Origin: an uncultured Bacilli bacterium
GTDB lineage: Bacteria; Bacillota_I; Bacilli_A; RF39; UBA660
Assembly: GCA_944358225.1 (NCBI GenBank)
Contig: CALVQP010000002.1
Location: forward strand, 1-33,999
DNA: 33,999 nucleotides
Reading direction: 5' to 3'
Notes under the pieces: model-generated
What the model was told of the DNA's origin: nothing
The model's database searches: none
What the model saw: the letters and a program-made list of their open reading frames with translations, nothing else
Shown here: positions 11,819 to 26,002 of the stretch, piece by piece
Position numbering within the stretch: position 1 is the first letter of the stretch
How the letters are laid out: each line of letters starts with the position of its first letter
Program-made: the position numbers and the translations under genes

Positions 11819-11990
11819 ACTTACGTTTATTATACCTTGTTAGACTTCTAAGTGCAAGCAACAATATAAGAAGTATATGGAAATACTTAATTTTGATTAT
11901 GCAATTATTAAGACTCTATTTCCAAAATAATCATTTTCTTACGTTCTATTTTTATTAGCTACAAATAAACTTTAATAAAGGAAGTGAATT

Positions 11991-12318
11991 ATGTTACTAA
12001 GTTTATTAAGTCTATTTAAACAAATGCTTTTTTTCACTGGAAGTTATTCCAATAATGTTTTTCCAGATCCTCTAAGTAAAGAAGAAGAAGAACATCATAT
12101 CAAATTAATGTTAGCAGGAAATAAAGATTCACGTAATAAATTAATTGAACACAATCTGCGCTTAGTTGCTCATATTGTCAAAAAATTCGACAACGCTAGT
12201 AATGATAATGACGACCTAATAAGTATTGGCACTATTGGATTAATTAAAGGAATTGATACTTATAAAAACAGCCATAAAACAAAAATTACTACCTACTGTG
12301 CCCGTTGTATTGAAAATG
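11991..12318 (+). CDS. sigK: 5' segment of pro-sigma-K gene (spoIVCB-like)
   Basis: The pro-sequence and regions 1.2/2 (IEHNLRLVAHIVKKF, DLISIGTIGLIKGIDTY, YCARCIEN) match recalled SigK up to CIEN. Beyond 12318 the frame runs 28 unrelated codons to TAA at 12402-12404. Confidence 0.9.
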
Positions 12319-12328
12319 CAACGTTCAC
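12303..12328. other. attL junction (core AATG at 12315-12318)
   Basis: sigK homology ends here. The same AATG recurs at 21326-21329, where sigK homology resumes. Confidence 0.8.
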
Positions 12329-12826
12329 ATCAAAGAACTTTTTGATAGAACTAATGCACTATTTAAACGAATTGGAACTAAACTACAACTTTCTTACACG
12401 TTAACAACCCATACGTGTTGGAACTTAACACCAATAACGTCGGAAAGTACGTTCGGTGAACAAATAAAATATTATCGTAGACTTAACGATGTTAAGCAAA
12501 CGGAATTGGGTATTAAGTTAAACTTTGAGAGAAGTACCCTAAACCACCTTGAAAACCACGAGATAAAACTTGTAAACGTTAATCTAATAAAAGGAATAAT
12601 AGAAGAACTAGGAATTGAAGATGAAATCAACATAAATGACGATTATATTAACTTCTTACTTAATAACCCTTGTGAGAAGATAAGAAAAACACGAAAGAAA
12701 ATGAAACTTACCTTACAACAATTTGGCGACTTACTAGGTGTAAGTGATACATCAGTAAGACGTTGGGAACACGGAAATTGTCAGATAAGTAGAAAAAAAT
12801 ACGAGAGACTTAAAGATTATATTTAA
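12317..12826 (+). CDS. Start-less coding segment (169 codons) with two XRE-type HTH domains; predicted 3' end of the recombinase gene on the excised circle
   Basis: The frame is open from 12314 with no ATG/GTG/TTG before the called TTG at 12506. HTH1 (FGEQIKYYRRLNDVKQTELGIKLNFERSTLNHLENHE) straddles that TTG. HTH2 is LTLQQFGDLLGVSDTSVRRWEHG. The frame matches the recombinase frame across attP. Confidence 0.6.
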   Translation, partial: CNVHIKELFDRTNALFKRIGTKLQLSYTLTTHTCWNLTPITSESTFGEQIKYYRRLNDVKQTELGIKLNFERSTLNHLENHEIKLVNVNLIKGIIEELGIEDEININDDYINFLLNNPCEKIRKTRKKMKLTLQQFGDLLGVSDTSVRRWEHGNCQISRKKYERLKDYI

Positions 12827-12848
12827 TCAACAAGTCTCTCTTTTATTT
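12803..12848 (+). terminator. Hairpin terminator at the end of the HTH segment
   Basis: Stem gagagact/agtctctc (8 bp), a loop containing the TAA, then a ttttatttt run. Confidence 0.55.
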
Positions 12849-13005
12849 TATCTATTATTCCGTAAAGTATTTTTTCTTTTTCATCAATGCTTACGTTTAA
12901 TTTTCTTATACCTAACAAGACAAGTTCACTTTGTAATTTAGCAAACTCACTATAAAACTCACACCAACCAGTTTTATCAGTTGGTAAGTTCATTATCAGT
13001 TTCAC
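12823..13005 (-). CDS. Small protein, paralog of 18150..18341
   Basis: Shared pattern NLPTD...F..FAKLQ..LV...I.KLNV. The first 15 nt of the conserved part are identical in both copies. GTG or ATG start. Confidence 0.45.
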   Translation of the reverse strand: MKLIMNLPTDKTGWCEFYSEFAKLQSELVLLGIRKLNVSIDEKEKILYGIIDKIKERLVD

Positions 13006-13059
13006 ACTATCACCAATTAAGTATATGAAAAGTTTTTATAAATCTGAACACGAAAGGAA

Positions 13060-13323
13060 GTGGTATTAACGGACAAAAGGTTATTGCCTATAAAAGATAT
13101 GGAATTCACTATCAACAATGATATGGAAGAAGAAGTCTTTGTGTTATTGTCAATACAACAAATACTGAATTCTACTGAATTAAGTAAAAGAGAAAAGAAG
13201 CTGTTAGAGAAACTAAAATTTGAAATACTAGATGACTTTAGGTCTCAATTACATAGTCTTAATCTTACACAAGTTGCAATTGCAAGAGCATTCCTTAATG
13301 GCAAAAAAAATGATGAGAGATAA
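13060..13323 (+). CDS. Hypothetical protein (start uncertain; alternative ATG at 13099)
   Basis: ORF track. Ends in a hairpin. No family recognised and the RBS is poor. Confidence 0.35.
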   Translation: MVLTDKRLLPIKDMEFTINNDMEEEVFVLLSIQQILNSTELSKREKKLLEKLKFEILDDFRSQLHSLNLTQVAIARAFLNGKKNDER

Positions 13324-13341
13324 GCACTGAACTTATCTCTC
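13315..13341. terminator. Hairpin between convergent genes
   Basis: Stem gagagataa/ttatctctc with an 8-9-nt loop (cactgaac), then tttatt. Confidence 0.55.
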
Positions 13342-13342
13342 T

Positions 13343-13672
13343 TTATTCGCAACCATTATTATTTGTTCTTTTAGTTGTTGCTTTACCATAACCTAATTCA
13401 ACTCGATTAGAATATCTACAGCCAGCACAATTAACTGCAATTTGTTGTCTTGGGTCTTTTTGAAATTCCCAAATAATCTCTTGAAAGCACTCTCTAAATA
13501 GTTGCATAAACTCTTTCTTCTTGTTCTCGTGTTCTTGTTGCATTTGATTATACTTTTCAATTCCGTTCTCAATGATGAAGTTTAAGTCATATTCAAGAGT
13601 GTTTTTCTTTGGCTCTGATAGTCCTAATAATTCCTCAATATCTAAATCAATACTTACTTTCTTATTCGCCAT
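13343..13672 (-). CDS. Hypothetical protein
   Basis: ORF track. GGAGG lies 9 nt upstream, and the ORF overlaps the upstream Xis-like ORF by 11 nt, which suggests translational coupling. Confidence 0.5.
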   Translation of the reverse strand: MANKKVSIDLDIEELLGLSEPKKNTLEYDLNFIIENGIEKYNQMQQEHENKKKEFMQLFRECFQEIIWEFQKDPRQQIAVNCAGCRYSNRVELGYGKATTKRTNNNGCE

Positions 13673-13847
13673 TTGTCTTAACCTCCATAAGTTCTAAAAA
13701 CTTGTAATATTCATATTCACTTACTAAATAATCTTTTGATATTTTAGTTGCCTTTAATGTTCCATTTTTTATTAGTCTCTTAAGATAAATAACTGATGTA
13801 TGGGTCATCTCATTTATTTCTTTCAATGTATAAAACTTTTCTTTCAT
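13662..13847 (-). CDS. Excisionase/MerR-like HTH DNA-binding protein
   Basis: 61 aa. YTLKEINEMTHTSVIYLKRLIKNGTLKATKI resembles the excisionase-family HTH pattern. GGAGG RBS. Confidence 0.6.
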   Translation of the reverse strand: MKEKFYTLKEINEMTHTSVIYLKRLIKNGTLKATKISKDYLVSEYEYYKFLELMEVKTNGE

Positions 13848-13895
13848 CTAACCTCCAAAAATACTAGGTGGGGGGTGGTTAAGTAAAGTGCCACT

Positions 13896-13918
13896 AAAAA
13901 AAAGGACATATAAGTCCT
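13896..13918 (-). terminator. Weak terminator after the RepL-like gene
   Basis: Minus strand: AGGAC-TTATAT-GTCCT followed by T8. Confidence 0.45.
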
Positions 13919-13938
13919 ATGCCCCTACCTAAATTTAC

Positions 13939-14466
13939 CTAATCATTTTGAGTATTCCATTTACTCTTTTTAAATATTCTATATAGTGTTGCATTGATGT
14001 AAGTCCCATTCTGAAATATAAAGGGGTTCATTATAAACACACTATTTCTTCCGGACTTTGTCCTTGCCATAATGTTTAATTTGATGAGTCTATTAACACT
14101 CTCGTTAAATGTATTATGCGACATATCTGCCAGTTCAAGAAATCTTGCTTTACTTATATTAACACCATCTTCTATTAAGACACCACTAGTCTTATCTAAA
14201 TAAGCAAGTGCGATTAGAATAAGTTTATAATCACTCTTGGTTAAATCTTCTCGTGCAAGTATTCCTATTGTATCTTTATATACTTTAACAAACGTATTGT
14301 TCTTCTTTATGACCTTACGATTTGCCATATAATCTTTTTGTTCTTTAGTATAGACTCGCAAAGAATCTCCCTCTCTTAAAGAGTATTCTATCTCACCAGT
14401 ATCGGTGTTCATAAATTGGCAGACTATTTCTTCATCAGTAATTTGCTTACGTTTTACTTGTTCCAT
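13939..14466 (-). CDS. RepL-like winged-helix replication/maintenance protein
   Basis: Colinear with recalled firmicute plasmid RepL (D..TGEI.., NTFVKVY, a wHTH region, then MNPFIFQNG). The likely start is the ATG at 14466, with GGAGG 5 nt upstream. The track ORF extends to 14496. Confidence 0.55.
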   Translation of the reverse strand: MEQVKRKQITDEEIVCQFMNTDTGEIEYSLREGDSLRVYTKEQKDYMANRKVIKKNNTFVKVYKDTIGILAREDLTKSDYKLILIALAYLDKTSGVLIEDGVNISKARFLELADMSHNTFNESVNRLIKLNIMARTKSGRNSVFIMNPFIFQNGTYINATLYRIFKKSKWNTQND

Positions 14467-14496
14467 AACTACCTCCAAGTTGTAAATACATACCAA

Positions 14497-14806
14497 TTTT
14501 AGTTTTAAAACAACCTAAATAGACCTCAATTGTTTGGTATGATATGTCCCAATATACTGGTATCTTTTTTTGTTTAAAAGTCCGATAAATAAAGGAAAAC
14601 TGCTTGTCTTTCTTCTTATCTTTTCTTATATATAATTGTAAAGTTAATTTTATTAAGTTTAACTCTACTATAATGTATATATATAAATAATATATATATT
14701 AGTAATATACTCTATATTACCCAAAAACCTTTTGTAAACCTCCTTAAATTGCTTTAACAAGACAATGGTATGTCTTACATAAATCTTTTACAATTAAATT
14801 CTAATA
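14497..14806. other. AT-rich intergenic region with TA-tracts and short repeats (candidate origin/promoter)
   Basis: Contains AGTTAA..TTAACT, AAGTTnAA twice, and gtatatatataaataatatatatatt tracts. It lies immediately upstream of the RepL-like gene. Confidence 0.3.
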
Positions 14807-14995
14807 TTATTTTGTGGCTTGTGTTAAGTCTTTAGAGTAAACAAAAACAAGAGCATTAAGTTGCTCTTGCGATAAATAGTATCTACTACCAATTTTAGTA
14901 TAAGATATTATGTTGTTAACTACCCAACTATAAAGTGTCTTATATGACACACCAATTTCTTTACAAGCACTTTTCAATGGTATTAAGTCTCTAAT
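14807..14995 (-). CDS. Unlisted small excisionase/AlpA-like HTH protein (start uncertain: ATT at 14995 or 14998, or TTG at 14977)
   Basis: Hand translation: (IIRDLIP)LKSACKEIGVSYKTLYSWVVNNIISYTKIGSRYYLSQEQLNALVFVYSKDLTQATK*. GGAGG is at 15008-15004. There is no in-frame ATG or GTG. Confidence 0.5.
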   Translation of the reverse strand: MRDLIPLKSACKEIGVSYKTLYSWVVNNIISYTKIGSRYYLSQEQLNALVFVYSKDLTQATK

Positions 14996-15063
14996 AATAT
15001 CTACCTCCTCATATATATAGTAGTTTATAAGAAACTTTCATACAATTTCGTGTATTTTTGTAT

Positions 15064-15090
15064 AAAAAAAGTATATAGCATTTGCTATAC
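15064..15090 (-). terminator. Terminator of the three-gene cargo operon
   Basis: Minus strand: GTATAGCA-AA-TGCTATA(T)AC followed by T7. Confidence 0.6.
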
Positions 15091-15091
15091 A

Positions 15092-16585
15092 CTATCTATT
15101 ATGTTTATTAGTATCACTATTTTGACCTAAAGTTTGTTCTAACAACATTTTATATTCACTACTATCAAATATTTGAGGTTGTGGAAATTGACCAAACTTG
15201 CTTTGATAATACTGCATTACTTCATTAAAAGTTCCTTTTGCAACATCAGTTGAATATTGTTGTGAGAAAGTTGTAAGTTGTCTTTGTTTGTACTCACTCA
15301 TTAAGTCTGTTCTATTATAACCGGCAAAAACGTTGAATTGTTCGTGAGAGTAAGCCATACCATTAGGATTATATATAGGACAAAAGTTAGGGTTAGTAAT
15401 AAATCCATCAATAGTTTTGTTATATACCCCTTGAATTAAATTTGGACTAAACACACTATTACCATCACCAGTATTTTTCCATAAAGGCATAGGGACATCA
15501 CAACTACCGTCTCTATGAGGTTGACAAGATAAATACTCTTTAGGAACTTTAATTACAAATACTGATTTAAAATCTTCTAATTGAGAATATGACTTCATTA
15601 TACTTTCTAGACCTTGTGTTTTAATATCTTCATCACTAATTGGTGCTAGAGTAGAATGTAGACTAAGTGATATATCATTTTCTAATATTAAACCATTATT
15701 GAAGAAATCTGCTAAAGCCTCCGGACTTTCATTTGCCGTCCCGTGAAGAAAGTAAGCATATTCTATGTTATTCTGTTTAACACCAATTTTATTTAAAAAG
15801 TTCTCATCTTGTATCTCTAAAGTTAGACTTTGTAATAATTGAGAGTTGTTTTTTGAAACTGATTTAACAAGCCCTTGTATAAAACTTATTATTTGTTCTT
15901 TTCTTGTATCTAACAGTTTCATATCTGCGTCATTTAATTTGGCATAGTGTTTTGTTTTACTTAAAGCATATATTTCATTCATCATACTTGCAAACGAACT
16001 AAACTTTCCATTTGTAAGACTATCAAATTCTTGCTCAAACATATTGTTATTATTAAGATATTGATTAGCTAGTTTATCAGCACCAATAATAACTTTCATA
16101 ACTCGCATTACATTTTTAACAAAATATAAATAATCTTCACTTTCACTTAAACGGCATTGTTCTATATCTTCTGCAAATAATTGAGTGATTGCTTCATCAA
16201 GACCAGTATATATGCTTTGTCCGTTTCCTTGATATTGATGTCCAAAAAAATGTTGATTGCCATCTTTCATTTGACTTAATCCGTGTAAGACTTCGTGTGT
16301 AGTTTGAACGTTAGTTATTTGAGGGTTATTTAAAGCAAAAGTTTCATCTATATAAATTTCCTTTGACCCATCTTGAAATGGCCAACAAACCATATTAGAC
16401 CATCTAATTTGTCTTACTGGGGCATAGAACAAATTAAAACCCTTACTCATATTTTGTTCTAAATTATTTACTAATACTATATTTCTAAAGTATTCCCAAG
16501 CCATTCTTTTTTTATTGTTTATTACATCAAGAGGTTGTTGTTTTCTATACTTTAATAATTCATTATATTGTTCTTGTAGTGTCAT
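15092..16585 (-). CDS. 497-aa two-domain protein: N-terminal HExxH zincin-like domain plus uncharacterised C-terminal domain
   Basis: HEVLH at aa 97-101 (nt 16297-16283) with GLDEAITQ about 30 aa downstream, a gluzincin-like spacing. The C-terminal half carries FLHGT and HEQFNVF motifs. AGGAGG RBS. No signal peptide or TM. Confidence 0.6.
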   Translation of the reverse strand: MTLQEQYNELLKYRKQQPLDVINNKKRMAWEYFRNIVLVNNLEQNMSKGFNLFYAPVRQIRWSNMVCWPFQDGSKEIYIDETFALNNPQITNVQTTHEVLHGLSQMKDGNQHFFGHQYQGNGQSIYTGLDEAITQLFAEDIEQCRLSESEDYLYFVKNVMRVMKVIIGADKLANQYLNNNNMFEQEFDSLTNGKFSSFASMMNEIYALSKTKHYAKLNDADMKLLDTRKEQIISFIQGLVKSVSKNNSQLLQSLTLEIQDENFLNKIGVKQNNIEYAYFLHGTANESPEALADFFNNGLILENDISLSLHSTLAPISDEDIKTQGLESIMKSYSQLEDFKSVFVIKVPKEYLSCQPHRDGSCDVPMPLWKNTGDGNSVFSPNLIQGVYNKTIDGFITNPNFCPIYNPNGMAYSHEQFNVFAGYNRTDLMSEYKQRQLTTFSQQYSTDVAKGTFNEVMQYYQSKFGQFPQPQIFDSSEYKMLLEQTLGQNSDTNKHNR

Positions 16586-16601
16586 TTTAAAACCTCCTTA
16601 A

Positions 16602-17234
16602 TTACTTTATATTTTTTATTGACTTTAGCACATTTTTATCATCAAATTCCAATTCAAATAGTTCTGGACAATTCCAATTGCCATCAAAAACCATTTCATT
16701 ATTGAAATATATTTCTATCAATTTGTTATCTTCATTTAGAATAACATCACAACATTTAGATAGCATAGTCGAAATAGCAGTTCCGTGAGATACAACGGCA
16801 ATTTTCTTATTAGAATGCTTATTTAATATATCTGCTATTGCATTATTCATTCTTTCCGATACTTCATTTGCAGACTCACCATTATCAAGTTTATAATCCC
16901 AGTCTCTAAACTGATTCTCAAAAAAGTCTTTTGGAAGTTCATACATATTATTTACCCCAAATCTTCTCTCACCAAGTCTCTCATCAACATTTAATAAAAT
17001 GTTATTGTTGGTTGCAATATATTTAGCAGTACACATTGCTCTTACATAATGAGACGAGTAAATTACATCTATATTTTGTAATTCCTCACGTTTGCTCATT
17101 TGTTCTGCAAGTCTTTCACCCTCAACACTTAACATATTCTTTTCATTTCTAATTTGCTCAACTTCGTTAACGTTGTAATCACCCAACAAAGACCTAAATG
17201 GTTGTGAGTGTCTTAACAAATAAATAGTTGTCAT
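16602..17234 (-). CDS. Histidine phosphatase (phosphoglycerate mutase-like superfamily)
   Basis: LLRHSQ (RH motif), SSHYVRAMCTA, ERLGERRFG and VVSHGTAIS are all present in order. GGAGGG RBS. Confidence 0.8.
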   Translation of the reverse strand: MTTIYLLRHSQPFRSLLGDYNVNEVEQIRNEKNMLSVEGERLAEQMSKREELQNIDVIYSSHYVRAMCTAKYIATNNNILLNVDERLGERRFGVNNMYELPKDFFENQFRDWDYKLDNGESANEVSERMNNAIADILNKHSNKKIAVVSHGTAISTMLSKCCDVILNEDNKLIEIYFNNEMVFDGNWNCPELFELEFDDKNVLKSIKNIK

Positions 17235-17253
17235 TATAATTCACCCTCCGATA

Positions 17254-17688
17254 TTACTTTATATTAAATTCATCTTTCATCATTTCAAATATTTTAAGTC
17301 TTTCTTCTTTAGTAAAAATGTCTTTTTGTTTCTTGAATTTGCTTAAAGCCCATTTCCAAAAATTATAACCAAAATGCTTGTCCTTGTATACCTTGCCAAA
17401 CAATTTTAATTCATCTTTATATCGTGGTACAAAGTGATAATGGACGTGTGGTTTCTCATTATCTCTATAAGCATTATTCATTAAGCAAGCAAAGTTAAAC
17501 ATTGTTGCACCAAAAACTTTTTTACAAACTCTTTCAAGTTCTTTCTCAAGTTGTCCTAGTTCTTCCCAAGCCTCCGGTGTTAAATCACTTAAAGATTTTT
17601 TATCATTCCCTATGATACAATAACCAACAAATTCTTGACACCAGTCGCCAAAAATAACGTCCCAATTTTTTCCTTTATACAATTCCAT
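17254..17688 (-). CDS. HIT-family (histidine triad) protein
   Basis: The HVHYHFVPRY histidine triad lies about aa 80-90 of 144, preceded by a typical FN.A.L.N segment. GAGGTGG RBS. Confidence 0.8.
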   Translation of the reverse strand: MELYKGKNWDVIFGDWCQEFVGYCIIGNDKKSLSDLTPEAWEELGQLEKELERVCKKVFGATMFNFACLMNNAYRDNEKPHVHYHFVPRYKDELKLFGKVYKDKHFGYNFWKWALSKFKKQKDIFTKEERLKIFEMMKDEFNIK

Positions 17689-17727
17689 AGTTCCACCTCA
17701 ATTATAATTATACTATATTTAAGCAAA

Positions 17728-17759
17728 TTTAAAAAGCACATAACTTTTTATTATGTACT
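17728..17759 (-). terminator. Terminator separating the 18341-17801 unit from the HIT operon
   Basis: Minus strand: AGTACATAA-TAAAAAG-TTATGTGCT (9 bp, one G-U) followed by TTTTTAAATTT. Confidence 0.6.
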
Positions 17760-17800
17760 TTTGAGTTTGTTAGACGTTCTAGAAAGTTCTTAACTAGTAT

Positions 17801-18157
17801 CTATTTAGTTCTTTCTTGGTTAAAATTTATTCCCAAGATGTAATTTAGTTTTTGAAATTGGCTATAATAACCTTTCATCTCGTTGCATAGACTTTTTATT
17901 CTATTAACATAATGGTTGCTTGATGTGTTTACTGGCTTAATATTTTTTAAATATTTAGTAAACATAGTTAATTCTTTGTCAGTTATATTTCTTTGAGAAT
18001 AAGCACTCATATATGCCTTAATAAATTCCTTTTGAACAAAGTTTAGTATTTGTTCTTCGTTTATATCAGTTAAAGGCTTATTATGTCTTTTTTTATTTCC
18101 CTTATTATTCCCATTATTTTGCTTATTACTTGCAATAGTGTTATCACTATTATTCAT
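17801..18157 (-). CDS. Hypothetical protein with basic Asn/Lys-rich N-terminus
   Basis: ORF track. GGAGG lies 9 nt upstream, and the ORF overlaps the upstream small ORF by 8 nt. Confidence 0.5.
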   Translation of the reverse strand: MNNSDNTIASNKQNNGNNKGNKKRHNKPLTDINEEQILNFVQKEFIKAYMSAYSQRNITDKELTMFTKYLKNIKPVNTSSNHYVNRIKSLCNEMKGYYSQFQKLNYILGINFNQERTK

Positions 18158-18341
18158 CTTTCTTTACCTCCTTGACTTTATTTTTAAGTAGTTCTAGAAC
18201 ACCTATACAAACATTTTCTTTAGATGTATCGTCAACATTAAGTTTCTTAATTGACTCTGCAACTAACTTGGCTTGTAGTTTAGCAAATTGTTCATTAAAC
18301 ATACTTTTTTCTTTATCATCAGTTGGTAAGTTAATAATCAA
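18150..18341 (-). CDS. Small protein, paralog of 12823..13005
   Basis: IINLPTDDKEKSMFNEQFAKLQAKLVAESIKKLNV aligns with the other copy. TTG start without a well-placed SD, so the start is uncertain. Confidence 0.45.
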   Translation of the reverse strand: MIINLPTDDKEKSMFNEQFAKLQAKLVAESIKKLNVDDTSKENVCIGVLELLKNKVKEVKKDE

Positions 18342-18437
18342 CTTGATGACAATACATCTCCTTTCCCCCTTACTTGCAAATAATAAACCGGTTTCTTCTT
18401 TGCATAACCATCATATCAAACTAAAATATTATTACAA

Positions 18438-18488
18438 TAAAAAAAGTGCATTTTTTACCTTTAGTACCGAACGGCAAAATTTGCACTT
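18438..18488 (-). terminator. Long-loop hairpin after the 313-aa ORF
   Basis: Minus strand: AAGTGCA ... TGCACTT followed by T7. The loop is about 31 nt, so this is weak. Confidence 0.4.
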
Positions 18489-18489
18489 C

Positions 18490-19431
18490 TTATATATTTA
18501 TAACTTTTGAGTAAGTAGATTCTTGTAAGTCAATTGCAACACTTTCAAATAAAGTAAATGATGAGATGTACTTGTTATTTTCTCTTTCAATAATCTCTTG
18601 AATTAAAGTTAACCCTTTATGGTTTTTGCCTTGACTTAATAAGTTATACACCTCGTGTAGTTCGTAGTATTCTTTCAAGTAGTATATGTCTCTACAATTA
18701 GCCATATTTTTATTGTCATCAAAATAGTCTTGCAACAACTCAATGGCTTTAACATTATATTTTGTAATTAAGTAGTTGTTTACATCTGCAATAGTAATAA
18801 GTAAATAACTAATTTGATTATATAGTGTTGCCTTATACTTGCTTTCTATAAACACATTATCAAAGTAAATCTTTTTAAACTTTAAGATAACCTTATCATT
18901 ATTAAGCGAACAATGGACTCTTTTCTTAATGTTGTCTACTATTGACCTATCATATATGATATTTTCACCCATAACCCAACAATAATGCTCGTTATCTATT
19001 TCTTGCATTTCGTCATAGATGTAATCTTTAAAGCCCTCAAAATCACGTTCAAACTTATCTTGCCAACTAACTAGTGTTTCTAGTTTTTTATATACCTTGT
19101 TTATATATTCGTTTGTTAAATTGTCTTTGTTAACACTAATATACATATTATATAAAGGTACACTTCTATTAACTGAATAATAGTGGCGACCGGCTTTCAA
19201 ATACATTTGCTTTATGTTATCAATAGCATTTTGAACACTACCACGTCTTGCAATAGCATTATTACATCTAATAATAAAGTCTATGGTATCAATAATAAAT
19301 CTTGGTATATAATCACCACTTCTGATAACATATCTTTTATTGCCTCTGCATAAATAAGCCAAATATGTTTGTTCACTAAACTTATTGTCAAAATAATTGT
19401 GGAACTTAAAGTCTTTCTTTAAGTGAGACAT
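18490..19431 (-). CDS. 313-aa orphan protein, divergent from the recombinase
   Basis: ORF track with a GGAGGGGG RBS. No motif recognised. Confidence 0.55.
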   Translation of the reverse strand: MSHLKKDFKFHNYFDNKFSEQTYLAYLCRGNKRYVIRSGDYIPRFIIDTIDFIIRCNNAIARRGSVQNAIDNIKQMYLKAGRHYYSVNRSVPLYNMYISVNKDNLTNEYINKVYKKLETLVSWQDKFERDFEGFKDYIYDEMQEIDNEHYCWVMGENIIYDRSIVDNIKKRVHCSLNNDKVILKFKKIYFDNVFIESKYKATLYNQISYLLITIADVNNYLITKYNVKAIELLQDYFDDNKNMANCRDIYYLKEYYELHEVYNLLSQGKNHKGLTLIQEIIERENNKYISSFTLFESVAIDLQESTYSKVINI

Positions 19432-19503
19432 ATAACCCCCTCCAGTTAGTCAATTATTATAACACAACTTTAAGCGAAAATCTGCCCTAAAATGCTTTTA
19501 TTT

Positions 19504-19542
19504 TTATGTGTTATGTGATATATTATTAGTATAATCACATAA
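19504..19542. promoter_or_regulatory. Repeat cluster over the recombinase promoter (TTATGTG x2 direct; TTATGTGAT-N14-ATCACATAA inverted)
   Basis: A perfect 9-bp inverted repeat (19511-19519 / 19534-19542) brackets TATAAT at 19530-19535. An additional TTATGTG lies at 19504-19510. Confidence 0.45.
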
Positions 19543-19560
19543 AAGAAAGGAACTGATTTT

Positions 19561-21330
19561 ATGGGTAATGACAATATAGCAAAAATAAGAAACGATTTAA
19601 GGAAATATGTTATATATTCTCGTAAGTCAAAATTTACTGGTAAGGGTGAGTCAGTAGAAAACCAAATTGAAATATGTAAGGCATACATCAAGAGTAAATT
19701 TGATATAAACATTAAAGACGAAGATATTATCATTAAACAAGATGAGGGCTTTAGTGGTAAAGATGTCAAACGTCCTCAATTTCAAGAGATGATGAAACTT
19801 GTTAAAGACAAGCAAGTTAAAATGATAGTGGTATATAAACTGGATAGACTCTCTCGTAATGTTCTAGACTTCTGCGAGATGTATAATGAACTAGAATTAT
19901 ATGATACTAAATTTGCTAGTGTATCAGAAAGTTTTGATACTACTACTTCAATGGGACGTGCTATGCTTATGATAACAATGACGTTCGCCCAACTAGAACG
20001 AGAAACAATTGCAGAACGTATCAGAGACAATATGATGGAACTTGCTAAAACTGGACGTTGGCTTGGTGGTAATACACCTATGGGCTTTGAGTCAGAAAAA
20101 ATGGAAAAGTTTAACATCAATGGTAAAAAGGTTTCACTATACAAATTAAGCCCTATAAATGATGAAATAGAGATTATAAAACTTATCTATGATAAATACC
20201 TAGAATTAAAGTCTTTAACCACTCTAGAAACGTTTTTACTTAACAATAATCTAAAGACAAGACGTGAGTGTGATTTTGCTCGTTGGGGGCTTAAAAAGAT
20301 ACTTACAAACCCCGTTTATGCAATAGCAGACAAAGATATGTTCAATTACTTTAAAGACAATGATATGGACATATTTAACGAGGAAATTGACTGGGACGGA
20401 ACTTATGGTGTTATGAGTTATAACAAGACTAGTAAAACCAAAACTGGTAGTGTTAAAACTAAAGACAAAGACCAATGGATAAATGCTATTGGAAAACATC
20501 AAGGAATTATTAAAGGTAAAGACTGGGTAGAAGTTCAAACATTACTTAATAGTAATCAGAACAAGGCATACAGACTACCAGTTAAAAATAATTCTATTCT
20601 AGCCGGTATATTAAGATGTGAACATTGTGGCAACCTTATGAGACCAAAACTTAAAGACACAACACTTCCTAATGGCGATAGAAAGTTTAACTATATATGC
20701 GACCTTAAAATGAGGTCTAGAGGTAAACAATGCAATTGTCCTAACGTTAATGGAAACGAGGCAGACAAACTTGTTATTGACGGAATAAAGGAACTTGCTA
20801 AACCTACTAGTGAGTTCTACCAAGAACTACTTAAAGTTATTAAATATGAAAACTATGGCAAGAATAGTCAGACAACTGAATTAGAAGTGTTAGAAAGAAA
20901 ACACAACCAAAACCTTGCTAGTATTAAAAATTATATCTCTCGTATAGAATATGTTGATGAAGATTTATTAGATGACGTACAAAACAAAATAAAAGATTTA
21001 AAACAAAAGGACAAAGAAGTTGTAGCGAAAATTCAAGAACTTAAAGAGACACAACCAGACTCTTACACCGACCAAGAAACTGCTAAAATGCTTGTATACA
21101 TACTTGATAACTATATGAGCAACTTTACTGAACTTGATTTACTATCACAAAGAAACTTCTTAAAGTTGTTTATAGGTAATTGTTCTACTGATGGAAAAGA
21201 CATACATATTGACTTAATCGGTAGTAGAAATCATACAACAACCTATCAACCAGTTTTTGAAGGTAGTGAGAATTCCGAAACCGGAACTCACGGAGGACAA
21301 ATCGTTCTTTTAAGTGATAGTAGCGAATGA
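19561..21330 (+). CDS. Large serine recombinase (SpoIVCA-like), integrated-state form of 589 aa
   Basis: N-terminal resolvase domain (VIYSRKS catalytic Ser, VYKLDRLSRN), a recombinase domain, a zinc ribbon (CEHCG..CDLK..CNC), and a coiled-coil. The stop TGA at 21328-21330 straddles the attR core. Confidence 0.92.
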   Translation: MGNDNIAKIRNDLRKYVIYSRKSKFTGKGESVENQIEICKAYIKSKFDINIKDEDIIIKQDEGFSGKDVKRPQFQEMMKLVKDKQVKMIVVYKLDRLSRNVLDFCEMYNELELYDTKFASVSESFDTTTSMGRAMLMITMTFAQLERETIAERIRDNMMELAKTGRWLGGNTPMGFESEKMEKFNINGKKVSLYKLSPINDEIEIIKLIYDKYLELKSLTTLETFLLNNNLKTRRECDFARWGLKKILTNPVYAIADKDMFNYFKDNDMDIFNEEIDWDGTYGVMSYNKTSKTKTGSVKTKDKDQWINAIGKHQGIIKGKDWVEVQTLLNSNQNKAYRLPVKNNSILAGILRCEHCGNLMRPKLKDTTLPNGDRKFNYICDLKMRSRGKQCNCPNVNGNEADKLVIDGIKELAKPTSEFYQELLKVIKYENYGKNSQTTELEVLERKHNQNLASIKNYISRIEYVDEDLLDDVQNKIKDLKQKDKEVVAKIQELKETQPDSYTDQETAKMLVYILDNYMSNFTELDLLSQRNFLKLFIGNCSTDGKDIHIDLIGSRNHTTTYQPVFEGSENSETGTHGGQIVLLSDSSE

Positions 21331-21339: not shown

Positions 21340-21697
21340 GTTTTTTCGTTCCAACAAAAAAAATGACAATAATGTTAGTTTAAATGATTCAATTGGTTAT
21401 GATAAAGAAGGAAACGAAATTAACTTAATTGACGTAATTAAAGATGATAACCAAGATATATTATCAACAATTCATAATCAACATAATATTAATCTTTTAA
21501 ATAAATATTTAAAATTATTAACTCCCCGGGAAAAAGAAATAATAATAAAAAGGTATGGCTTAAACAACCAAGAAGAACAAACTCAAAAAGAAATAGCTGC
21601 CGATTTAAAAATATCTCGCAGCTACGTTTCACGTATTGAAAAAAGAGCTTTAACAAAAATTTTAAAAGAATTTATTAAAAGCAAAAATGAAATCTAA
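21326..21697 (+). CDS. sigK: 3' segment of the sigma-K gene (spoIIIC-like)
   Basis: NEILMFFRSNKK..VSLNDSIGYDKEGNEINLIDV..LTPREKEII..TQKEIAADLKISRSYVSRIEKRAL covers sigma-70 regions 3/4 and is colinear with recalled SigK. Confidence 0.9.
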   Translation, partial: NEILMFFRSNKKNDNNVSLNDSIGYDKEGNEINLIDVIKDDNQDILSTIHNQHNINLLNKYLKLLTPREKEIIIKRYGLNNQEEQTQKEIAADLKISRSYVSRIEKRALTKILKEFIKSKNEI

Positions 21698-22962
21698 TAA
21701 TATACTACATATGGATCATCAGCCGTACCACTACCTGTAGTTTTAAGGCTAGCTTTTAAATTTATAACCGGATACACCATTGGTGTCAAATCAGCTGCTG
21801 AACGTTGAGAATATCTAGAAGAAACTCCTGTTGTAACAAAATAAACTTGACTAGCTGTAGCTGGAGTCATCGTCCATTCAATTTTTTCCTTATATAAAAA
21901 GCCATTTCCTGCTCCACTTAAATAGAACTCATTAAATGTCATAAGACCAACATTTAATTTTAAAGGAGTAACATTACACAAAAAATTAGTCGTTGTACTC
22001 GTTACTTTATTAGAAGTATCATTACAAAAATCACTTTCTAAAGCGATATAATTTGCCAATTTACTTTTATTATCTTTATACCATTTATTCAAAAATGAAG
22101 AAGCATCATAAGCATATGTTGAACTCGCATTATATATTGATGATCCCGTATTATTAAAAGTTGCCTTAGTACTACCATTTACAGTTACCGGTTCATCTAA
22201 AGTAACTCTTACAGTTCTATCTTCATTAATCCTTATTATTCGAAAATTTAAATCCCCTATTTTTAAATAATTGTTTGGTTCTCCCTTAAAATAATAAGTT
22301 TCTTTATTATCATTACCAGTTCCTACAAATAAACCATTTGTTGCTGTACTAGGTTTATCATATAAAGTATCCAAATTATTATCAAATAATATTTTATTAG
22401 CTAAATATTCTTGATTAAATTCCACCGTAATTTTATTTTTAAAAATAGTATTTTCTTGTTGATTATTTCGTACATTCGAATCCATCCAAGATTTAAAACT
22501 AATATTAACTGTTTTTCCCGCCTCTATTATACCACTACCAACATTATAGGCACGTAAAGCATTATCCACAGTTGAACTAGAAACCGGATTGGAAGTTAAT
22601 AAAGTAACTTCATCATTAACAGCAATTTTAATTGCACTATCACTAGTAGTACTACCACTTAAAATATTTAAATTAACTGTATAGGGTAATGTTTGAGAAC
22701 AGTTATTTTTTATTGATAAAACATATGGATCAGTTTTAAGACCATCACTATCACTCATTGGTACTCTACTTTCTAAACTAATTCCTTCAGTATTTTCTGA
22801 ATAAGTAACGTTATAACATGCTGCTACAAAATTATTAAATTCATCTTGCTTAGTTGTATACATCAAATAAGCATAAGAAAAGGCTACAATTAAAATAATT
22901 GCTATAATTGATAAACTAAAAATAAAAAGCATTTTTTTATTTTTCATAATCATCAACCTCAT
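21694..22962 (-). CDS. N-terminally anchored extracytoplasmic protein, unknown function
   Basis: An N-terminal TM/signal anchor followed by a Ser/Thr/Asn-rich beta-type sequence. Convergent with sigK, overlapping by 4 nt. Confidence 0.5.
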   Translation of the reverse strand: MRLMIMKNKKMLFIFSLSIIAIILIVAFSYAYLMYTTKQDEFNNFVAACYNVTYSENTEGISLESRVPMSDSDGLKTDPYVLSIKNNCSQTLPYTVNLNILSGSTTSDSAIKIAVNDEVTLLTSNPVSSSTVDNALRAYNVGSGIIEAGKTVNISFKSWMDSNVRNNQQENTIFKNKITVEFNQEYLANKILFDNNLDTLYDKPSTATNGLFVGTGNDNKETYYFKGEPNNYLKIGDLNFRIIRINEDRTVRVTLDEPVTVNGSTKATFNNTGSSIYNASSTYAYDASSFLNKWYKDNKSKLANYIALESDFCNDTSNKVTSTTTNFLCNVTPLKLNVGLMTFNEFYLSGAGNGFLYKEKIEWTMTPATASQVYFVTTGVSSRYSQRSAADLTPMVYPVINLKASLKTTGSGTADDPYVVYY

Positions 22963-23136: not shown

Positions 23137-23979
23137 TTATTTCAATTTTATTTGACTAGTTTTTTCCAATTTTTCTTCCTCATTATGGTAATTTAAGCAC
23201 ATCCCTATTACAAATATATAAGCTAATAAATACACCCATAACATCAAAATAATAATATTAGCTAAACCACCGTAAAATAAATCATATCTAGCAAAATGAG
23301 TTATATAATAAGAATAAATTGCCGTACTAATTATCCATAAAATCGAAGTAAAAAGTGCTCCATAAGTTGTATAACTACTTGATCTTCTCCGATCCGGAGC
23401 CATTGTGTAAATAATTTTAATAAACATAAATATAATAAACCATGATATCGGGCCCTTCAAAAAACTTAGTAATTTTTCTATTCGTAACGTAATAGTAGCA
23501 TTTATATCAATATATTTAAATAATTCGATAATTTTATTTCCAAATACCGGAACTAATAAAATAAAAACAAACAAAGTAACAATAAACATTGTCATAATTA
23601 TAGCTTTTACTCGTCTTCTTAAATAACTACCATTAGACGTACCATCAATGGCATTAGCAGTAACAATCATTGAATCAGCCCCATTAGAAGCTATAAAAAA
23701 ACCAATAATTAGCGACACAAAAAACTTTATTCCTACATCATTTTTTTGCACAATTGGTAAGATTAACTGGGCAATATCTTTAGAAAAAGCCTTTTCTAAA
23801 AAATCTGCTATAAAATTAATCGATACATTAAAAAAAGAAGCTCCATAACTAATTAATGTAGCTATTGGAACAACAGAAAGCACAAAGAAAAAAGCAAGCT
23901 GTCCCGGTAATATAGACATCTCGGGCCTTTTTAAAGTTTTTAAAAACTTTTTATAAAAAGACTTAAATCTTCTTTTCAT
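23137..23979 (-). CDS. yihY: YihY/BrkB-family membrane protein
   Basis: LPGQLAFFFVLSVVPIATL and six hydrophobic segments are typical of YihY. I prefer the ATG at 23979, preceded by GGTGAGGA. The track ORF extends to 24033. Confidence 0.75.
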   Translation of the reverse strand: MKRRFKSFYKKFLKTLKRPEMSILPGQLAFFFVLSVVPIATLISYGASFFNVSINFIADFLEKAFSKDIAQLILPIVQKNDVGIKFFVSLIIGFFIASNGADSMIVTANAIDGTSNGSYLRRRVKAIIMTMFIVTLFVFILLVPVFGNKIIELFKYIDINATITLRIEKLLSFLKGPISWFIIFMFIKIIYTMAPDRRRSSSYTTYGALFTSILWIISTAIYSYYITHFARYDLFYGGLANIIILMLWVYLLAYIFVIGMCLNYHNEEEKLEKTSQIKLK

Positions 23980-26002
23980 TTTCCTCACCAGCCATTGCAT
24001 TTTTCTTTTCTTTAACTGCCAAGGTTGCTTCATTTATAGCATCTTCTAATAATTTAATATCATCAGTAATGCTACTACTTGCCATAATAGCCCCATATTC
24101 ATACGGTAACTTTTTAAATTCTTTAGTTAATTTACGCATATAAGAAGCAACTTGCTTTTCATTATATCCTACTAAATAAACCAAAAATTCTGTTCCATCA
24201 GTTCGCATAATATCAGTATTATCAAGCTGTGTTTTAATTAAAATATTAGCAGCAGCCTTAATTTGTTTGTCGCCTTCTTCATAACCATAAGTATCATTTA
24301 TATATTGGATATTACTTATATCTATTACTATTGTTACTTGCGGATAAATAGTATTTTTATTCCAATGATCAATATTTTCATTTAAATAATTTCTGTTTTT
24401 TAAAGAAGTCAACTGATCAATAAACTTCATTTTATCTTCTCGTTTGATTCTCTTAGCAATCTTCACTTTTTTAGAAGCTTTATAAATAATAATACCAATA
24501 ATAATACCGCCAAATACTAAATATAAAATATATGAAGCAATAGTTCCTAAAAGCGTCCCATTTTTTTGAACAACTTCATTAGAATATAATCCCTCATTAA
24601 TAACTTCCGTAGGATCTAAAGTATTAATATATTTAACGAACAATCTATTAAATGTACTATTGGTATTCGCAGCAAAATTATAAGTACTATCAATTACCCC
24701 AGTGTATCTACTAGAATAATTTTTTAATTCTTTATTTTGTAAAGCTAAATAATTATTATGATCTAAAACTAATATTTTTTCTTTTTTTGTTAGTTTTTTT
24801 AATTCTTTATTATTTTTAAAAGTTTCTAAATCATATGATTTTAAATACTGCTCTAATACACTATCTTCTAAAACGCTAATTCTTTCATTTTTCAAAGAAG
24901 TTAAACTATTTATAACCATATTATTGTCTTTTTTAACTAAAACATCATACTTTACATTAAATAAAGTTTTTATAGTATCATAATCACTTTTTATATTATA
25001 AAAATCAAAATACATATCAATATCTTTTTTATTTATAGCTTTCATTAAAGCATCTTTACTTTTATATCGTGTATAAGAAATATCAATGCTAGCAAACTGT
25101 TTAAATCTATCTAGTAAAACATTTGTAATTCCGCCATAGTTAGACCCAGCTACTACTTCGTAAGGAGCGTTAGCAATAAATCCATAATTATAAGTTTTAC
25201 TGCGCAAGCGATCTTTTTGTTCATCACTTACTTCTAATTCTTCTGTAAAAAAAGTAAACAGTTCTTGATTATAATGATTTAAAAAATTTTTTAAAGTCCA
25301 ATTATTATAATATTTTTCTACAATGGATGCAAATTTCTCATCGGCAATATTTATATAAATTGTATAATATTGTGGTATATCTGATAAATGAAAATTAATA
25401 TAATTATCATCTTGTAAATAAACCTCTAAATATTCATTTAAAGGAACCAAAATATAATCTATTTCTTCTTGTTCATCAAAAGCATTTATTAACTTTTCTT
25501 TTTCATCATATTGTCTAAAACTCCCACCATTTATCTCGTTTAAAAAAGTTGTAACATGCGAAAGATCACGACTCAAAACACCAACTTTACGATTAGCCAA
25601 ATCCGCAATATTTTTAAGAGAAACATCTTTTTTTCCTATTAGTACATAATGATCTTTATATATTAGTAAATCATTGTCACTGAGCTCATTAGTTACTCTA
25701 AAAGAAATCCCTTCACCTGATTCGTCACCAGTGTAAGTATTAGGATTAATAGTTAAACCATATTCATTAGAAAAATCGGTAATAAAATCATAAAATACTC
25801 CTACACCATCATTAGCAAATATGTTAGTATTATTTTTTATCCCCATGTTTAAAACAATTTTATTGTTATTATTTATCCATTGTTTTTCTAAAATAGTAAG
25901 CTTATTATCATCTTTTAAAACATTTAGTAATATTATAGTTCCTACTATTAATAAAATTAAAATTATACCCCCAATTATTATTTTAGTTTTATTTCTTTTC
26001 AT
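23963..26002 (-). CDS. Membrane sensor with large extracytoplasmic region and degenerate GGDEF domain
   Basis: Two TMs flank about 450 aa. The C-terminal domain has the GGDEF-domain pattern (IDISNIQYINDTYGYEEGD .. RTDGTEFLVYL), but the signature reads DGTEF (nt 24199-24185). Confidence 0.65.
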   Translation of the reverse strand: MKRNKTKIIIGGIILILLIVGTIILLNVLKDDNKLTILEKQWINNNNKIVLNMGIKNNTNIFANDGVGVFYDFITDFSNEYGLTINPNTYTGDESGEGISFRVTNELSDNDLLIYKDHYVLIGKKDVSLKNIADLANRKVGVLSRDLSHVTTFLNEINGGSFRQYDEKEKLINAFDEQEEIDYILVPLNEYLEVYLQDDNYINFHLSDIPQYYTIYINIADEKFASIVEKYYNNWTLKNFLNHYNQELFTFFTEELEVSDEQKDRLRSKTYNYGFIANAPYEVVAGSNYGGITNVLLDRFKQFASIDISYTRYKSKDALMKAINKKDIDMYFDFYNIKSDYDTIKTLFNVKYDVLVKKDNNMVINSLTSLKNERISVLEDSVLEQYLKSYDLETFKNNKELKKLTKKEKILVLDHNNYLALQNKELKNYSSRYTGVIDSTYNFAANTNSTFNRLFVKYINTLDPTEVINEGLYSNEVVQKNGTLLGTIASYILYLVFGGIIIGIIIYKASKKVKIAKRIKREDKMKFIDQLTSLKNRNYLNENIDHWNKNTIYPQVTIVIDISNIQYINDTYGYEEGDKQIKAAANILIKTQLDNTDIMRTDGTEFLVYLVGYNEKQVASYMRKLTKEFKKLPYEYGAIMASSSITDDIKLLEDAINEATLAVKEKKNAMAGEENEKKI

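Follow-up and report, generated by a model that had tools for sequence, protein, structure and literature searches.

We have analysed a DNA stretch of 33,999 nucleotides from an uncultured Bacilli bacterium (contig CALVQP010000002.1, positions 1 to 33,999; hereafter the window) and found that three co-directional open reading frames (ORFs) on its minus strand form one co-transcribed, horizontally mobile accessory module. They code for a HIT-like protein of 144 aa, a histidine phosphatase of 210 aa and a HExxH protein of 497 aa. The genes recur together in other genomes, in changing order and with changing partners. We tentatively suggest that the module protects its carriers by dismantling peptides or proteins to which phosphate or nucleotidyl groups are attached.

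The genes are separated by 19 nt (HIT/phosphatase) and 16 nt (phosphatase/497-aa gene), and each is preceded by a strong Shine–Dalgarno sequence (GAGGTGG, GGAGGG, and AGGAGG, respectively). Hairpins flank the operon on both sides (Table 1). The upstream hairpin folds with −13.0 kcal/mol (z = −4.05, none of 200 shuffles folds equally well) and probably is the terminator of the preceding 118-aa gene; the downstream hairpin folds with −12.9 kcal/mol (z = −4.29) and has 10 pairs followed by TTTTTTT. A scan for consensus terminators lists the downstream but not the upstream hairpin, because the AT-rich stem of the latter has too few G–C pairs. The stretch from the upstream hairpin to the HIT start codon holds two overlapping TATAAT boxes, which by their consensus are a candidate −10 element for a promoter of the operon itself. 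All three proteins lack membrane segments and signal peptides (maximal 19-residue Kyte–Doolittle mean ≤1.02). An earlier note made from the letters of the window had described the gaps, the Shine–Dalgarno sequences, the flanking hairpins, the lack of signal peptides and membrane segments, and intact catalytic motifs in all three proteins (HVHYHFV; RHS and SHG; HEVLH and a Glu ~30 aa farther on). Our analysis agrees with this description, and the ORFs are exactly as given there. A regulatory RNA or riboswitch in the window was considered as well and rejected, as an Rfam search gave no match.

The 497-aa protein has no match in Pfam, NCBIfam, PADLOC, PHROGs, or among the PDB sequences and is not a housekeeping enzyme. 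Homologue searches divide it into two modules, an N-domain (aa 1–272) and a C-domain (aa ~270–497). The HEVLH motif is found at aa 97–101 and Glu131 lies within the sequence GLDEAITQ. Ten residues are invariant in 28 aligned N-domain sequences: H97, E98, H101, F114, G115, G128, E131, A132, T134, and Q135. The AlphaFold model of the N-domain (pLDDT 93.9) has a three-stranded sheet (strands 50–55, 65–69, and 75–80), then the helix with the HExxH motif (88–104) and then the helix bearing E131 (127–142). A three-stranded sheet ahead of the active-site helix is the core fold of the zincins (PMC5512222), and the model agrees with this definition. None of the 28 members matches a Pfam family in the N-domain itself, no peptidase family appears even at E up to 10, and a profile search against the PDB gave no match. 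By motif and predicted topology, we place the N-domain among the gluzincin-type zincins, as a new family of this superfamily.

Four architectures of the N-domain were observed: alone in proteins of ~280 aa, together with the C-domain, behind a Pfam HopA1 domain (protein of ~625 aa), and fused to an HD domain and a C-terminal membrane anchor (946–965 aa). The long proteins of the last type (L012:10001-12841 and L016:10001-12898; loci are designated by L numbers) consist of the N-domain, an HD phosphohydrolase, ~450 aa without an assigned family and the single membrane anchor, and their genes are followed by a gene for a Cys-rich protein of ~200–220 aa.

The 144-aa protein belongs to the HIT superfamily by its sequence. 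The triad HVHYHFV is found at aa 81–87 and is followed by PRY. The Pfam HIT model is passed marginally (21.9 bits, cutoff 21.5, E = 2.8e-4), and among the PDB sequences 2oik matches best (E = 3e-4), with Fhit next. In addition, the protein carries a strongly conserved, family-specific C-terminal extension of ~50 aa. Ten orthologues are 64–90% identical; the first and the central histidine are kept in all but one of them, the central one in all 10, and the third position of the triad is H or Q. Two orthologues have HxHxQ, a form known from HIT nucleotidyl transferases (GalT/Apa branch). The best NCBIfam match of the window protein, a weak one, is ATP adenylyltransferase.

The 210-aa protein is clearly a branch-1 histidine phosphatase as judged from its sequence. 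It matches Pfam His_Phos_1 with E = 3.9e-26 and the catalytic set R8-H9, R65, E89, and H150 is intact. The motifs RHS (aa 8–10), YVRA (aa 63–66), GER (aa 88–90), and SHG (aa 149–151) are conserved in an alignment of 12 orthologues, which we call type A. The substrate of the enzyme cannot be named, because it reaches none of the NCBIfam equivalog cutoffs, including those of PspA, CobC, GpmB, and SixA (best PspA with 67 bits vs. a cutoff of 350; CobC 62 vs. 163). A second paralogue, type B, has 208 aa, is ~37% identical to the window enzyme, and its nucleophile motif reads KH and not RH; this paralogue is encoded at L013:1141-1767, L019:3216-3842, L033:485-1108, L036:4723-5343, and L038:5365-5988, sometimes in tandem with a type-A gene.

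The C-domain was found in 84 representative clusters, mostly as standalone proteins of ~200 aa, and also behind a HopA1 domain (P0061), behind an N-domain without HExxH (P0041), and behind a new domain of ~145 aa (7 representatives). Its model is confident (pLDDT 93.6) and gave no significant fold match in the PDB or BFVD. Cholera toxin A1 (E = 0.14, TM ~0.3), Tpt1, DarT1, a phage DarT, and lethal factor appear among the Foldseek matches, all of them below threshold, with E ≥ 0.14 and TM ≤ 0.33 for the ADP-ribosyltransferase (ART) and lethal factor matches. The recurrence of ART-fold proteins in this list is only a lead. The motif YFLHGT...GL had given the idea that the C-domain is an active ADP-ribosyltransferase. 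We reject this idea: the histidine of LHGT is H, Y, C, or I among 48 sequences, no glutamate is conserved among them, neither an H-Y-E nor an R-S-E catalytic set is conserved, and the fold searches are not significant. The invariant residues are mainly Gly, Pro, and Asn. The candidate catalytic histidine is not conserved, and we read the C-domain as an apparently non-catalytic binding/recognition or regulatory module. Of the two-domain effector-like protein proposed in the earlier note the two domains stand, and in the C-domain no catalytic residues are conserved.

The ~145-aa domain (motif F.IDRLFG..GLI.KEGR.DYI.LG) is fused to the C-domain in P0140 (L050:4771-5874), P0066, P0079, P0087, P0092, P0097, and P0103. 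In L050 a histidine phosphatase gene follows this C-domain protein, which lacks the N-domain, and the setting is chromosomal with DnaB, DnaI, and PolC.

The question whether the three genes belong together can be addressed by their co-occurrence elsewhere. A scan of the genome collection with the single 497-aa protein found nothing; scans with the N-domain alignment found 17 loci among species-representative genomes and another 15 in metagenomes, and look-ups of contigs added more. After removal of near-identical copies 30 distinct N-domain loci were counted. A partner was taken as linked when its gene lies within 3 kb and on the same strand as the N-domain gene. By this measure the phosphatase is linked in 16 of the 30 loci and the HIT gene in 10; at least one of the two is present in 18 and both are present in 8, and several of the other loci are truncated contigs. 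All phosphatase and HIT genes counted are on the strand of the N-domain gene. The trio therefore does co-occur outside the window, on which the proposal of the earlier note depended. The loci come from animal or human gut, and the metagenome-assembled genomes are labelled uncultured Bacilli, Mycoplasmatota, or Candidatus Onthousia. Three contigs, L020, L022, and L025 (CAZRJK010000032.1, CAYOWI010000028.1, and CAYOAY010000008.1), are labelled Muribaculaceae (Bacteroidota), yet their module is typical of low-GC Bacilli, which points to mis-binning or inter-phylum transfer.

At least four gene orders are seen across these loci. The order HIT–phosphatase–N-domain is found in the window, L010, L017, and L032, and phosphatase–N-domain–HIT in L013, L019, and L038 as well as, with a fragmented phosphatase gene, in L015 and L018. 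L023–L025 have N-domain–phosphatase, L002 has HIT–kinase–N-domain, and in L016 HIT and phosphatase are followed at a distance by kinase and N-domain. The genes of the module often abut or overlap by 0–4 nt, and the linkage is retained down to 40% identity of the N-domain. In L027 a remnant is left, consisting of the HIT gene and a gene for a 262-aa protein, in which the entire C-domain is preceded by the 45 C-terminal residues of the N-domain. The partners diverge more slowly than the N-domain: where the latter is only 47–50% identical to that of the window, the HIT proteins are 66–69% and the type-A phosphatases 75–77% identical. From the sequences, this looks like a constant small-molecule chemistry of the partners and a variable macromolecular target of the N-domain.

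The partners are also exchanged around the N-domain, which is the constant core of the module. An HD domain is fused to the N-domain (L012, L016), an ENPP-type phosphodiesterase (L021) or a NUDIX protein (L049) is encoded nearby, a GNAT occupies the position of the phosphatase (L014), a HopA1-like domain is fused to the N-domain or to the C-domain, and a P-loop kinase is found in place of the phosphatase in L002, which is a sibling of the element carrying the window operon. P-loop kinase-like proteins are encoded near the N-domain in about six loci (e.g., L002:3323-4411, L016:8853-9977, and L025:6864-7952). These proteins of 362–374 aa have a new N-terminal domain of ~200 aa and a kinase-like C-terminal half (GESGSGKS, DTD; weak matches to AAA_33, Zeta_toxin, and CoaE). 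The N-terminal half alone is encoded adjoining the N-domain gene at L037:6986-7555 and L040:6986-7555.

A further neighbour in about six or seven loci is a family of ~280 aa (cl5) without Pfam or PDB match, encoded at L023:11433-12272, L016:13536-14381, L019:1910-2761, L022:10800-11636, L024:1715-2554, L025:7949-8758, and L049:8023-8850. It has the motifs LLHGT..GL, YSG, FMPS, IEGILVGR, and YICNLDG and may be an H-Y-E-type enzyme. In the protein database 2131 relatives are found at E ≤ 0.001, and the contigs concerned are up to 1 Mb long. A profile–profile comparison links this family to the C-domain marginally (E ~1e-4, probability 56–62%).

The window comes from the chromosome of a Firmicute with very low GC content (0.21–0.32), and its genes include those for LexA, ArgRS, a rhomboid protease, SirA, LigA, PcrA, and a sortase. 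The operon lies in a serine-recombinase island of ~10 kb which is inserted among housekeeping genes (ArgRS, rhomboid, LexA, LigA, and PcrA genes on its flanks). The island has a large serine recombinase gene at one end, small helix–turn–helix (HTH) and Rep-like genes, and a GC content of 0.29–0.30 compared with 0.25–0.27 in the flanks. Its backbone recurs in two other samples with altered cargo. In L002 the recombinase is 75% identical, the 313-, 118-, 185-, 109-, and 106-aa genes are in conserved order, and the cargo is HIT, a 362-aa P-loop protein and a homologue of the 497-aa protein. In L033, the contig of which begins within the 118-aa gene, the 185-, 109-, and 106-aa genes are in conserved order and the cargo is an internally deleted HIT, the paralogous phosphatase and a 497-aa homologue. 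As the cargo differs on a common backbone, the trio occupies a variable cargo slot of a mobile element, which bears out the cargo status proposed earlier. In other loci, genes or fragments of Mob_Pre relaxases and serine recombinases are frequent neighbours of the module, and components are often pseudogenised (L003, L015, L018, L027, and L033).

Table 1. Position of the module, its signals and the surrounding island in the window
Feature	Position	Strand	Basis
HIT-superfamily protein, 144 aa	17254-17688	-	Pfam HIT, triad HVHYHFV
Histidine phosphatase branch 1 (dPGM/SixA/CobC-like), 210 aa	16602-17234	-	Pfam His_Phos_1
497-aa HExxH protein, whole ORF	15092-16585	-	ORF
N-domain of 497-aa protein (aa 1-272), gluzincin-like	15770-16585	-	Invariant motif residues and AlphaFold model
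C-domain of 497-aa protein (aa ~265-497 and stop codon), alpha/beta	15092-15793	-	Homologue clusters and model
AT-rich 13-bp hairpin 5' of the operon	~17732-17762	-	Folding vs. shuffles
Two overlapping TATAAT boxes, candidate -10 of the operon's own promoter	17701-17712	-	Consensus match in the sequence
Intrinsic-terminator-like hairpin and T-run, directly after the 497-aa stop codon	~15070-15093	-	Terminator scan and folding
Large serine recombinase of the island	19561-21330	+	Pfam Resolvase, Recombinase, Zn_ribbon_recom; 75%-identical copy at the end of L002
Integrative island, approximate extent	11991-21330	.	Backbone genes common with L002 and L033 (tblastn synteny), GC, housekeeping flanks
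106-aa HTH protein of the island	12506-12826		Its homologue would be the element's repressor

A phage or plasmid origin of the module was rejected. Within PHROGs only the phosphatase has a match, the N-domain family has no relative among the IMG/VR viral contigs, tblastn with the 497-aa protein found nothing in 50,697 records of phages and 72,556 of plasmids, and the HIT protein likewise has no match in these plasmids.

Some further features of the island and its surroundings were observed. An imperfect 47-nt direct repeat of 70% identity (11924-11970 and 22288-22334, 10.4 kb apart; ends matching exactly, AAAATAAT...CTACAAATAAAC) brackets the island, and its right copy falls within a 422-aa ORF at 21694-22962; the repeats could be remnants of the attachment sites, which we judge not convincing. 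Two small paralogues of 63 and 60 aa (18150-18341 and 12823-13005, both on the minus strand, ~45–50% identical) are encoded near opposite ends of the island and are both present in the sibling element L002, too. Just outside the island, adjoining a BrkB-like membrane protein, a 679-aa protein with a C-terminal GGDEF domain is encoded (23963-26002, minus strand), which is unrelated to the module.

The enzymes that join the N-domain in the different loci all act on phosphate or nucleotide esters or on modified peptides; HIT, histidine phosphatase, HD, NUDIX, ENPP-type phosphodiesterase, and P-loop kinase belong to the first group, the HopA1-like lyase and the GNAT to the second. The core is a domain of the peptidase type. 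A kit for dismantling adducts covers most of the data, and we tentatively favour the reading that the trio is a cytoplasmic protective module, borne by mobile elements, which takes apart phospho- or nucleotidyl-linked peptide or protein adducts. The zincin would cut the peptide part of the adduct-bearing peptide or protein, the HIT enzyme would then release a nucleoside monophosphate from a P–N or P–O–P linkage, and the histidine phosphatase would take off the remaining phosphomonoester. What the element and its new host would probably gain is protection against a toxin, an effector or signal of host defence, or a Trojan-horse peptide–nucleotide antibiotic. Operon structure, mobility, recurrent linkage, intact catalytic motifs and domain architecture are observed as described above; the substrate, the sequence of steps and the protective role are inferred.

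This reading is in agreement with the conservation of HExxH and E131 in 28 of 28 N-domains and of the HIT nucleophile histidine and the phosphatase set RH...R...E...H. HIT enzymes are known to confer immunity to peptide–nucleotide antibiotics, and immunity against those of the microcin C type is known to arise in three ways, by HIT, peptidase, or GNAT enzymes (PMC7157772). In addition, among the polyvalent proteins with which mobile elements counter host defence the zincin is the commonest (hub) domain (PMC5512222), and domains of the HopA1-like type include a proven phospho-Ser/Thr peptide lyase of class V lanthipeptide synthesis (PMC9486802). A weak hint towards protective mobile-element cargo is that the 150-aa product of L052 7956-8408 is 32% identical to the window HIT and is encoded between a primase and an SNF2/methylase polyvalent protein. 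L052 (MT835870.1), the only phage record with a HIT relative, was deposited as ‘Bacteriophage sp.’ and actually is a fragment of a conjugative element with genes for a coupling protein of a type IV secretion system, a MobA/VirD2 relaxase, NikA, a DUF3991-Toprim primase, YodL-DUF3846, and a 2500-aa SNF2/methylase polyvalent protein. The earlier note had proposed a nucleotide- or NAD-linked conflict system; the partners suggest phospho- or nucleotidyl-ester chemistry and do not tell on which side of a conflict, if any, this chemistry stands. A role in defence, in anti-defence or as a toxin, and a link to NAD, are hypothetical.

Several points weigh against the dismantling of adducts. In none of the loci does the module show a link to a substrate, a toxin, an antibiotic cluster, or a defence system. 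The peptidase activity of the N-domain is predicted only from the motif and the modelled topology, and a Foldseek search against the PDB gave matches below threshold only, the best zincin being collagenase T (E = 0.49, probability 0.47, TM = 0.33); in total this list of weak matches holds four zincin families, with ZMPSTE24, BlaR1, and EfeO ranking lower. The order of the reactions is one that we infer. The HIT triad, HxHxH in the window and HxHxQ in two orthologues, is not the HxHxK of the MccH clade. N-domain genes also stand alone amid housekeeping genes in L001, L020, L026, and L047, and the peptidase therefore has no strict need of its partners. Finally, the counts of co-occurrence are inflated by shared ancestry, because all loci come from one poorly known lineage.

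Alternatively, the module could serve in anti-phage or abortive-infection defence, the HIT protein (of transferase type in the HxHxQ variants) and the phosphatase making or destroying a nucleotide signal, the C-domain sensing it, and the zincin acting as the effector. That several genes form a cargo operon on integrative and mobilisable elements, and that the core protein evolves fast and has a variable architecture, would suit such a role, as would the likeness of the two HxHxQ orthologues to nucleotidyl transferases of the GalT/Apa branch, the weak ATP adenylyltransferase match of the HIT protein, and the joining of the C-domain to several different heads, as expected of a sensor or adaptor. 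Nevertheless, we regard this explanation as unlikely. No PADLOC model matches, and there is neither a recognisable infection sensor nor a known signalling domain. A kinase or a GNAT can replace the phosphatase and the C-domain is absent from most loci, so that no fixed sensor–effector pair exists. In addition, single components frequently decay while the rest is kept, which argues against a tightly balanced toxic effector.

A variant of the conflict scheme, to which we give somewhat less credit, would make the C-domain an ART-derived, non-catalytic coupler. Modular heads (zincin, HopA1-type lyase, or the ~145-aa domain) would be coupled through it to a nucleotide or phospho-adduct which HIT, phosphatase, NUDIX, HD, and kinase would write and erase, and the whole would be a proteolytic switch, controlled by a nucleotide or phospho-mark and not recognised so far, in defence or counter-defence. 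In this case reduced-genome gut Bacilli would have a conflict system of a new kind.

It might also be that the genes have no joint function and are three independent accessory enzymes which share a cargo slot on related mobile elements. The origin of all loci from one gut Bacilli lineage and related elements, the frequent loss or replacement of single components, and the occurrence of the N-domain gene alone would be expected in this case. We think this improbable, however, as the linkage survives at least four gene orders, different backbones (serine-recombinase islands and Mob_Pre elements) and chromosomal remnants, and still holds at 40% identity of the N-domain. The dense packing of the genes on a single strand, where stop and start codons often abut or overlap, also speaks for a common function, and the replacement enzymes keep to one chemical theme.

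Still harder to reconcile with the data is a pathway of peptide maturation or protein processing similar to that of peptides that are made by ribosomes and modified after translation (RiPPs). Here a kinase and a HopA1-type lyase would dehydrate Ser/Thr, the zincin would remove the leader, and HIT and phosphatase would tailor or proofread intermediates. The fusions of HopA1-like domains to the N-domain or the C-domain favour this idea, given that the LanY/CaoY lyases of the HopA1 Pfam family act on phosphorylated peptides (PMC9486802), as does the P-loop kinase adjoining the N-domain in L002, L016, and L025. On the contrary, kinase and lyase are both missing from the window operon and from most loci, the kinase is of the P-loop type and not an APH-like LanK, and no annotated precursor peptide, cyclase, or exporter is found in the neighbourhoods examined, in which no search for short ORFs was made.

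ImmA/IrrE proteases are gluzincins carried by integrative elements, and the island encodes HTH proteins; control of the element's life cycle by an ImmA/IrrE-like anti-repressor protease cleaving its HTH repressor is nevertheless most improbable and an ImmA/IrrE (Peptidase_M78) identity was rejected, as none of the 28 members matches Peptidase_M78 or another Pfam peptidase at E up to 10, the 497-aa gene is not adjacent to a repressor gene, its conserved neighbours are the HIT and phosphatase genes and not HTH genes, and the N-domain gene is found outside elements, too.

If the dismantling of adducts is true, uncultured gut Bacilli with reduced genomes possess, on small mobilisable elements, a dedicated kit that removes phospho- or nucleotidyl adducts from peptides or proteins. 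With it, a very common uncultured part of the flora of the human and animal gut would have a new way of countering toxins, host immunity, or Trojan-horse antibiotics. Whatever the function, families absent from Pfam and PDB are defined here, namely the zincin-like N-domain, the ~200-aa C-domain, the ~280-aa neighbour family and the N-terminal domain on the P-loop kinase, and the conserved network of gene neighbourhoods makes them experimentally approachable.

The combination of genes lies outside described systems, as the earlier note had supposed. Searches of the literature for it yielded no description and no pathway. In PADLOC-DB v2 the HIT and 497-aa proteins have no match and the phosphatase has one weak, irrelevant match (E = 0.0023); a known defence system was rejected on this ground. 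The closest parallel for the N-domain are the zincins of polyvalent proteins (Iyer et al. 2017, PMC5512222), which also have the HExxH helix after a three-stranded sheet and the Glu on the next helix, are borne by mobile elements, are fused to varying enzymatic or binding domains, and form clades unrelated to the classical peptidase families. In contrast, the proteins described here are small (1–3 domains, two in the 497-aa protein) and have no ArdC-N, SNF2, or methylase partners. Relaxase genes adjoin some loci, and there is no sign of transfer of the protein together with the DNA, the N-domain not being found in viral contigs nor the 497-aa protein in phages or plasmids. HIT and histidine phosphatase, the conserved neighbours of the module, are not mentioned in that survey.

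Immunity to microcin C is conferred by the HIT phosphoramidase MccH, the peptidase MccF, and the GNAT MccE, which act in the cytoplasm on the peptide–nucleotide conjugate (PMC7157772). Similarly, HIT, peptidase, and GNAT (L014) are found around the N-domain, and the HIT protein shares with MccH a conserved C-terminal extension. We rejected an MccH-type immunity HIT, however, since MccH uses the catalytic Lys of its HxHxK motif. Furthermore, MccF is an S66 serine peptidase and not a zincin, no mcc-like biosynthetic genes are nearby, and nothing in the microcin C system corresponds to the phosphatase, HD, NUDIX, and HopA1 partners. To the LanK/LanY pair of class V lanthipeptides (PMC9486802) the module is related by those relatives of the 497-aa protein that carry HopA1 fused to the N- or C-domain and by the kinase gene nearby in some loci. 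The window operon differs in lacking both, the kinase elsewhere is not APH-like, and no precursor peptide or cyclase is evident.

For the HIT protein, the Fhit/Hint-type hydrolases (PDB 2oik, human Fhit) give the best sequence matches and share the HφHφHφφ motif followed by PR and a size of ~145 aa. The window protein differs from them by its marginal Pfam score, a shorter N-terminal part, the family-specific extension, and the Q at the third His in some orthologues. Anthrax lethal factor combines an active zincin with a catalytically dead ADP-ribosyltransferase-like domain. The 497-aa protein likewise joins a predicted gluzincin to an alpha/beta domain without catalytic residues, and lethal factor appears among the weak fold matches of the C-domain; on the other hand, there is no sequence similarity and the 497-aa protein is cytoplasmic and not secreted. 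We take this resemblance, together with the weak fold matches, as a lead. Taken together, the module is made of members of known superfamilies (HIT, histidine phosphatase, and zincin); their combination recurs and has not been described before, and two of its domain families are absent from Pfam.

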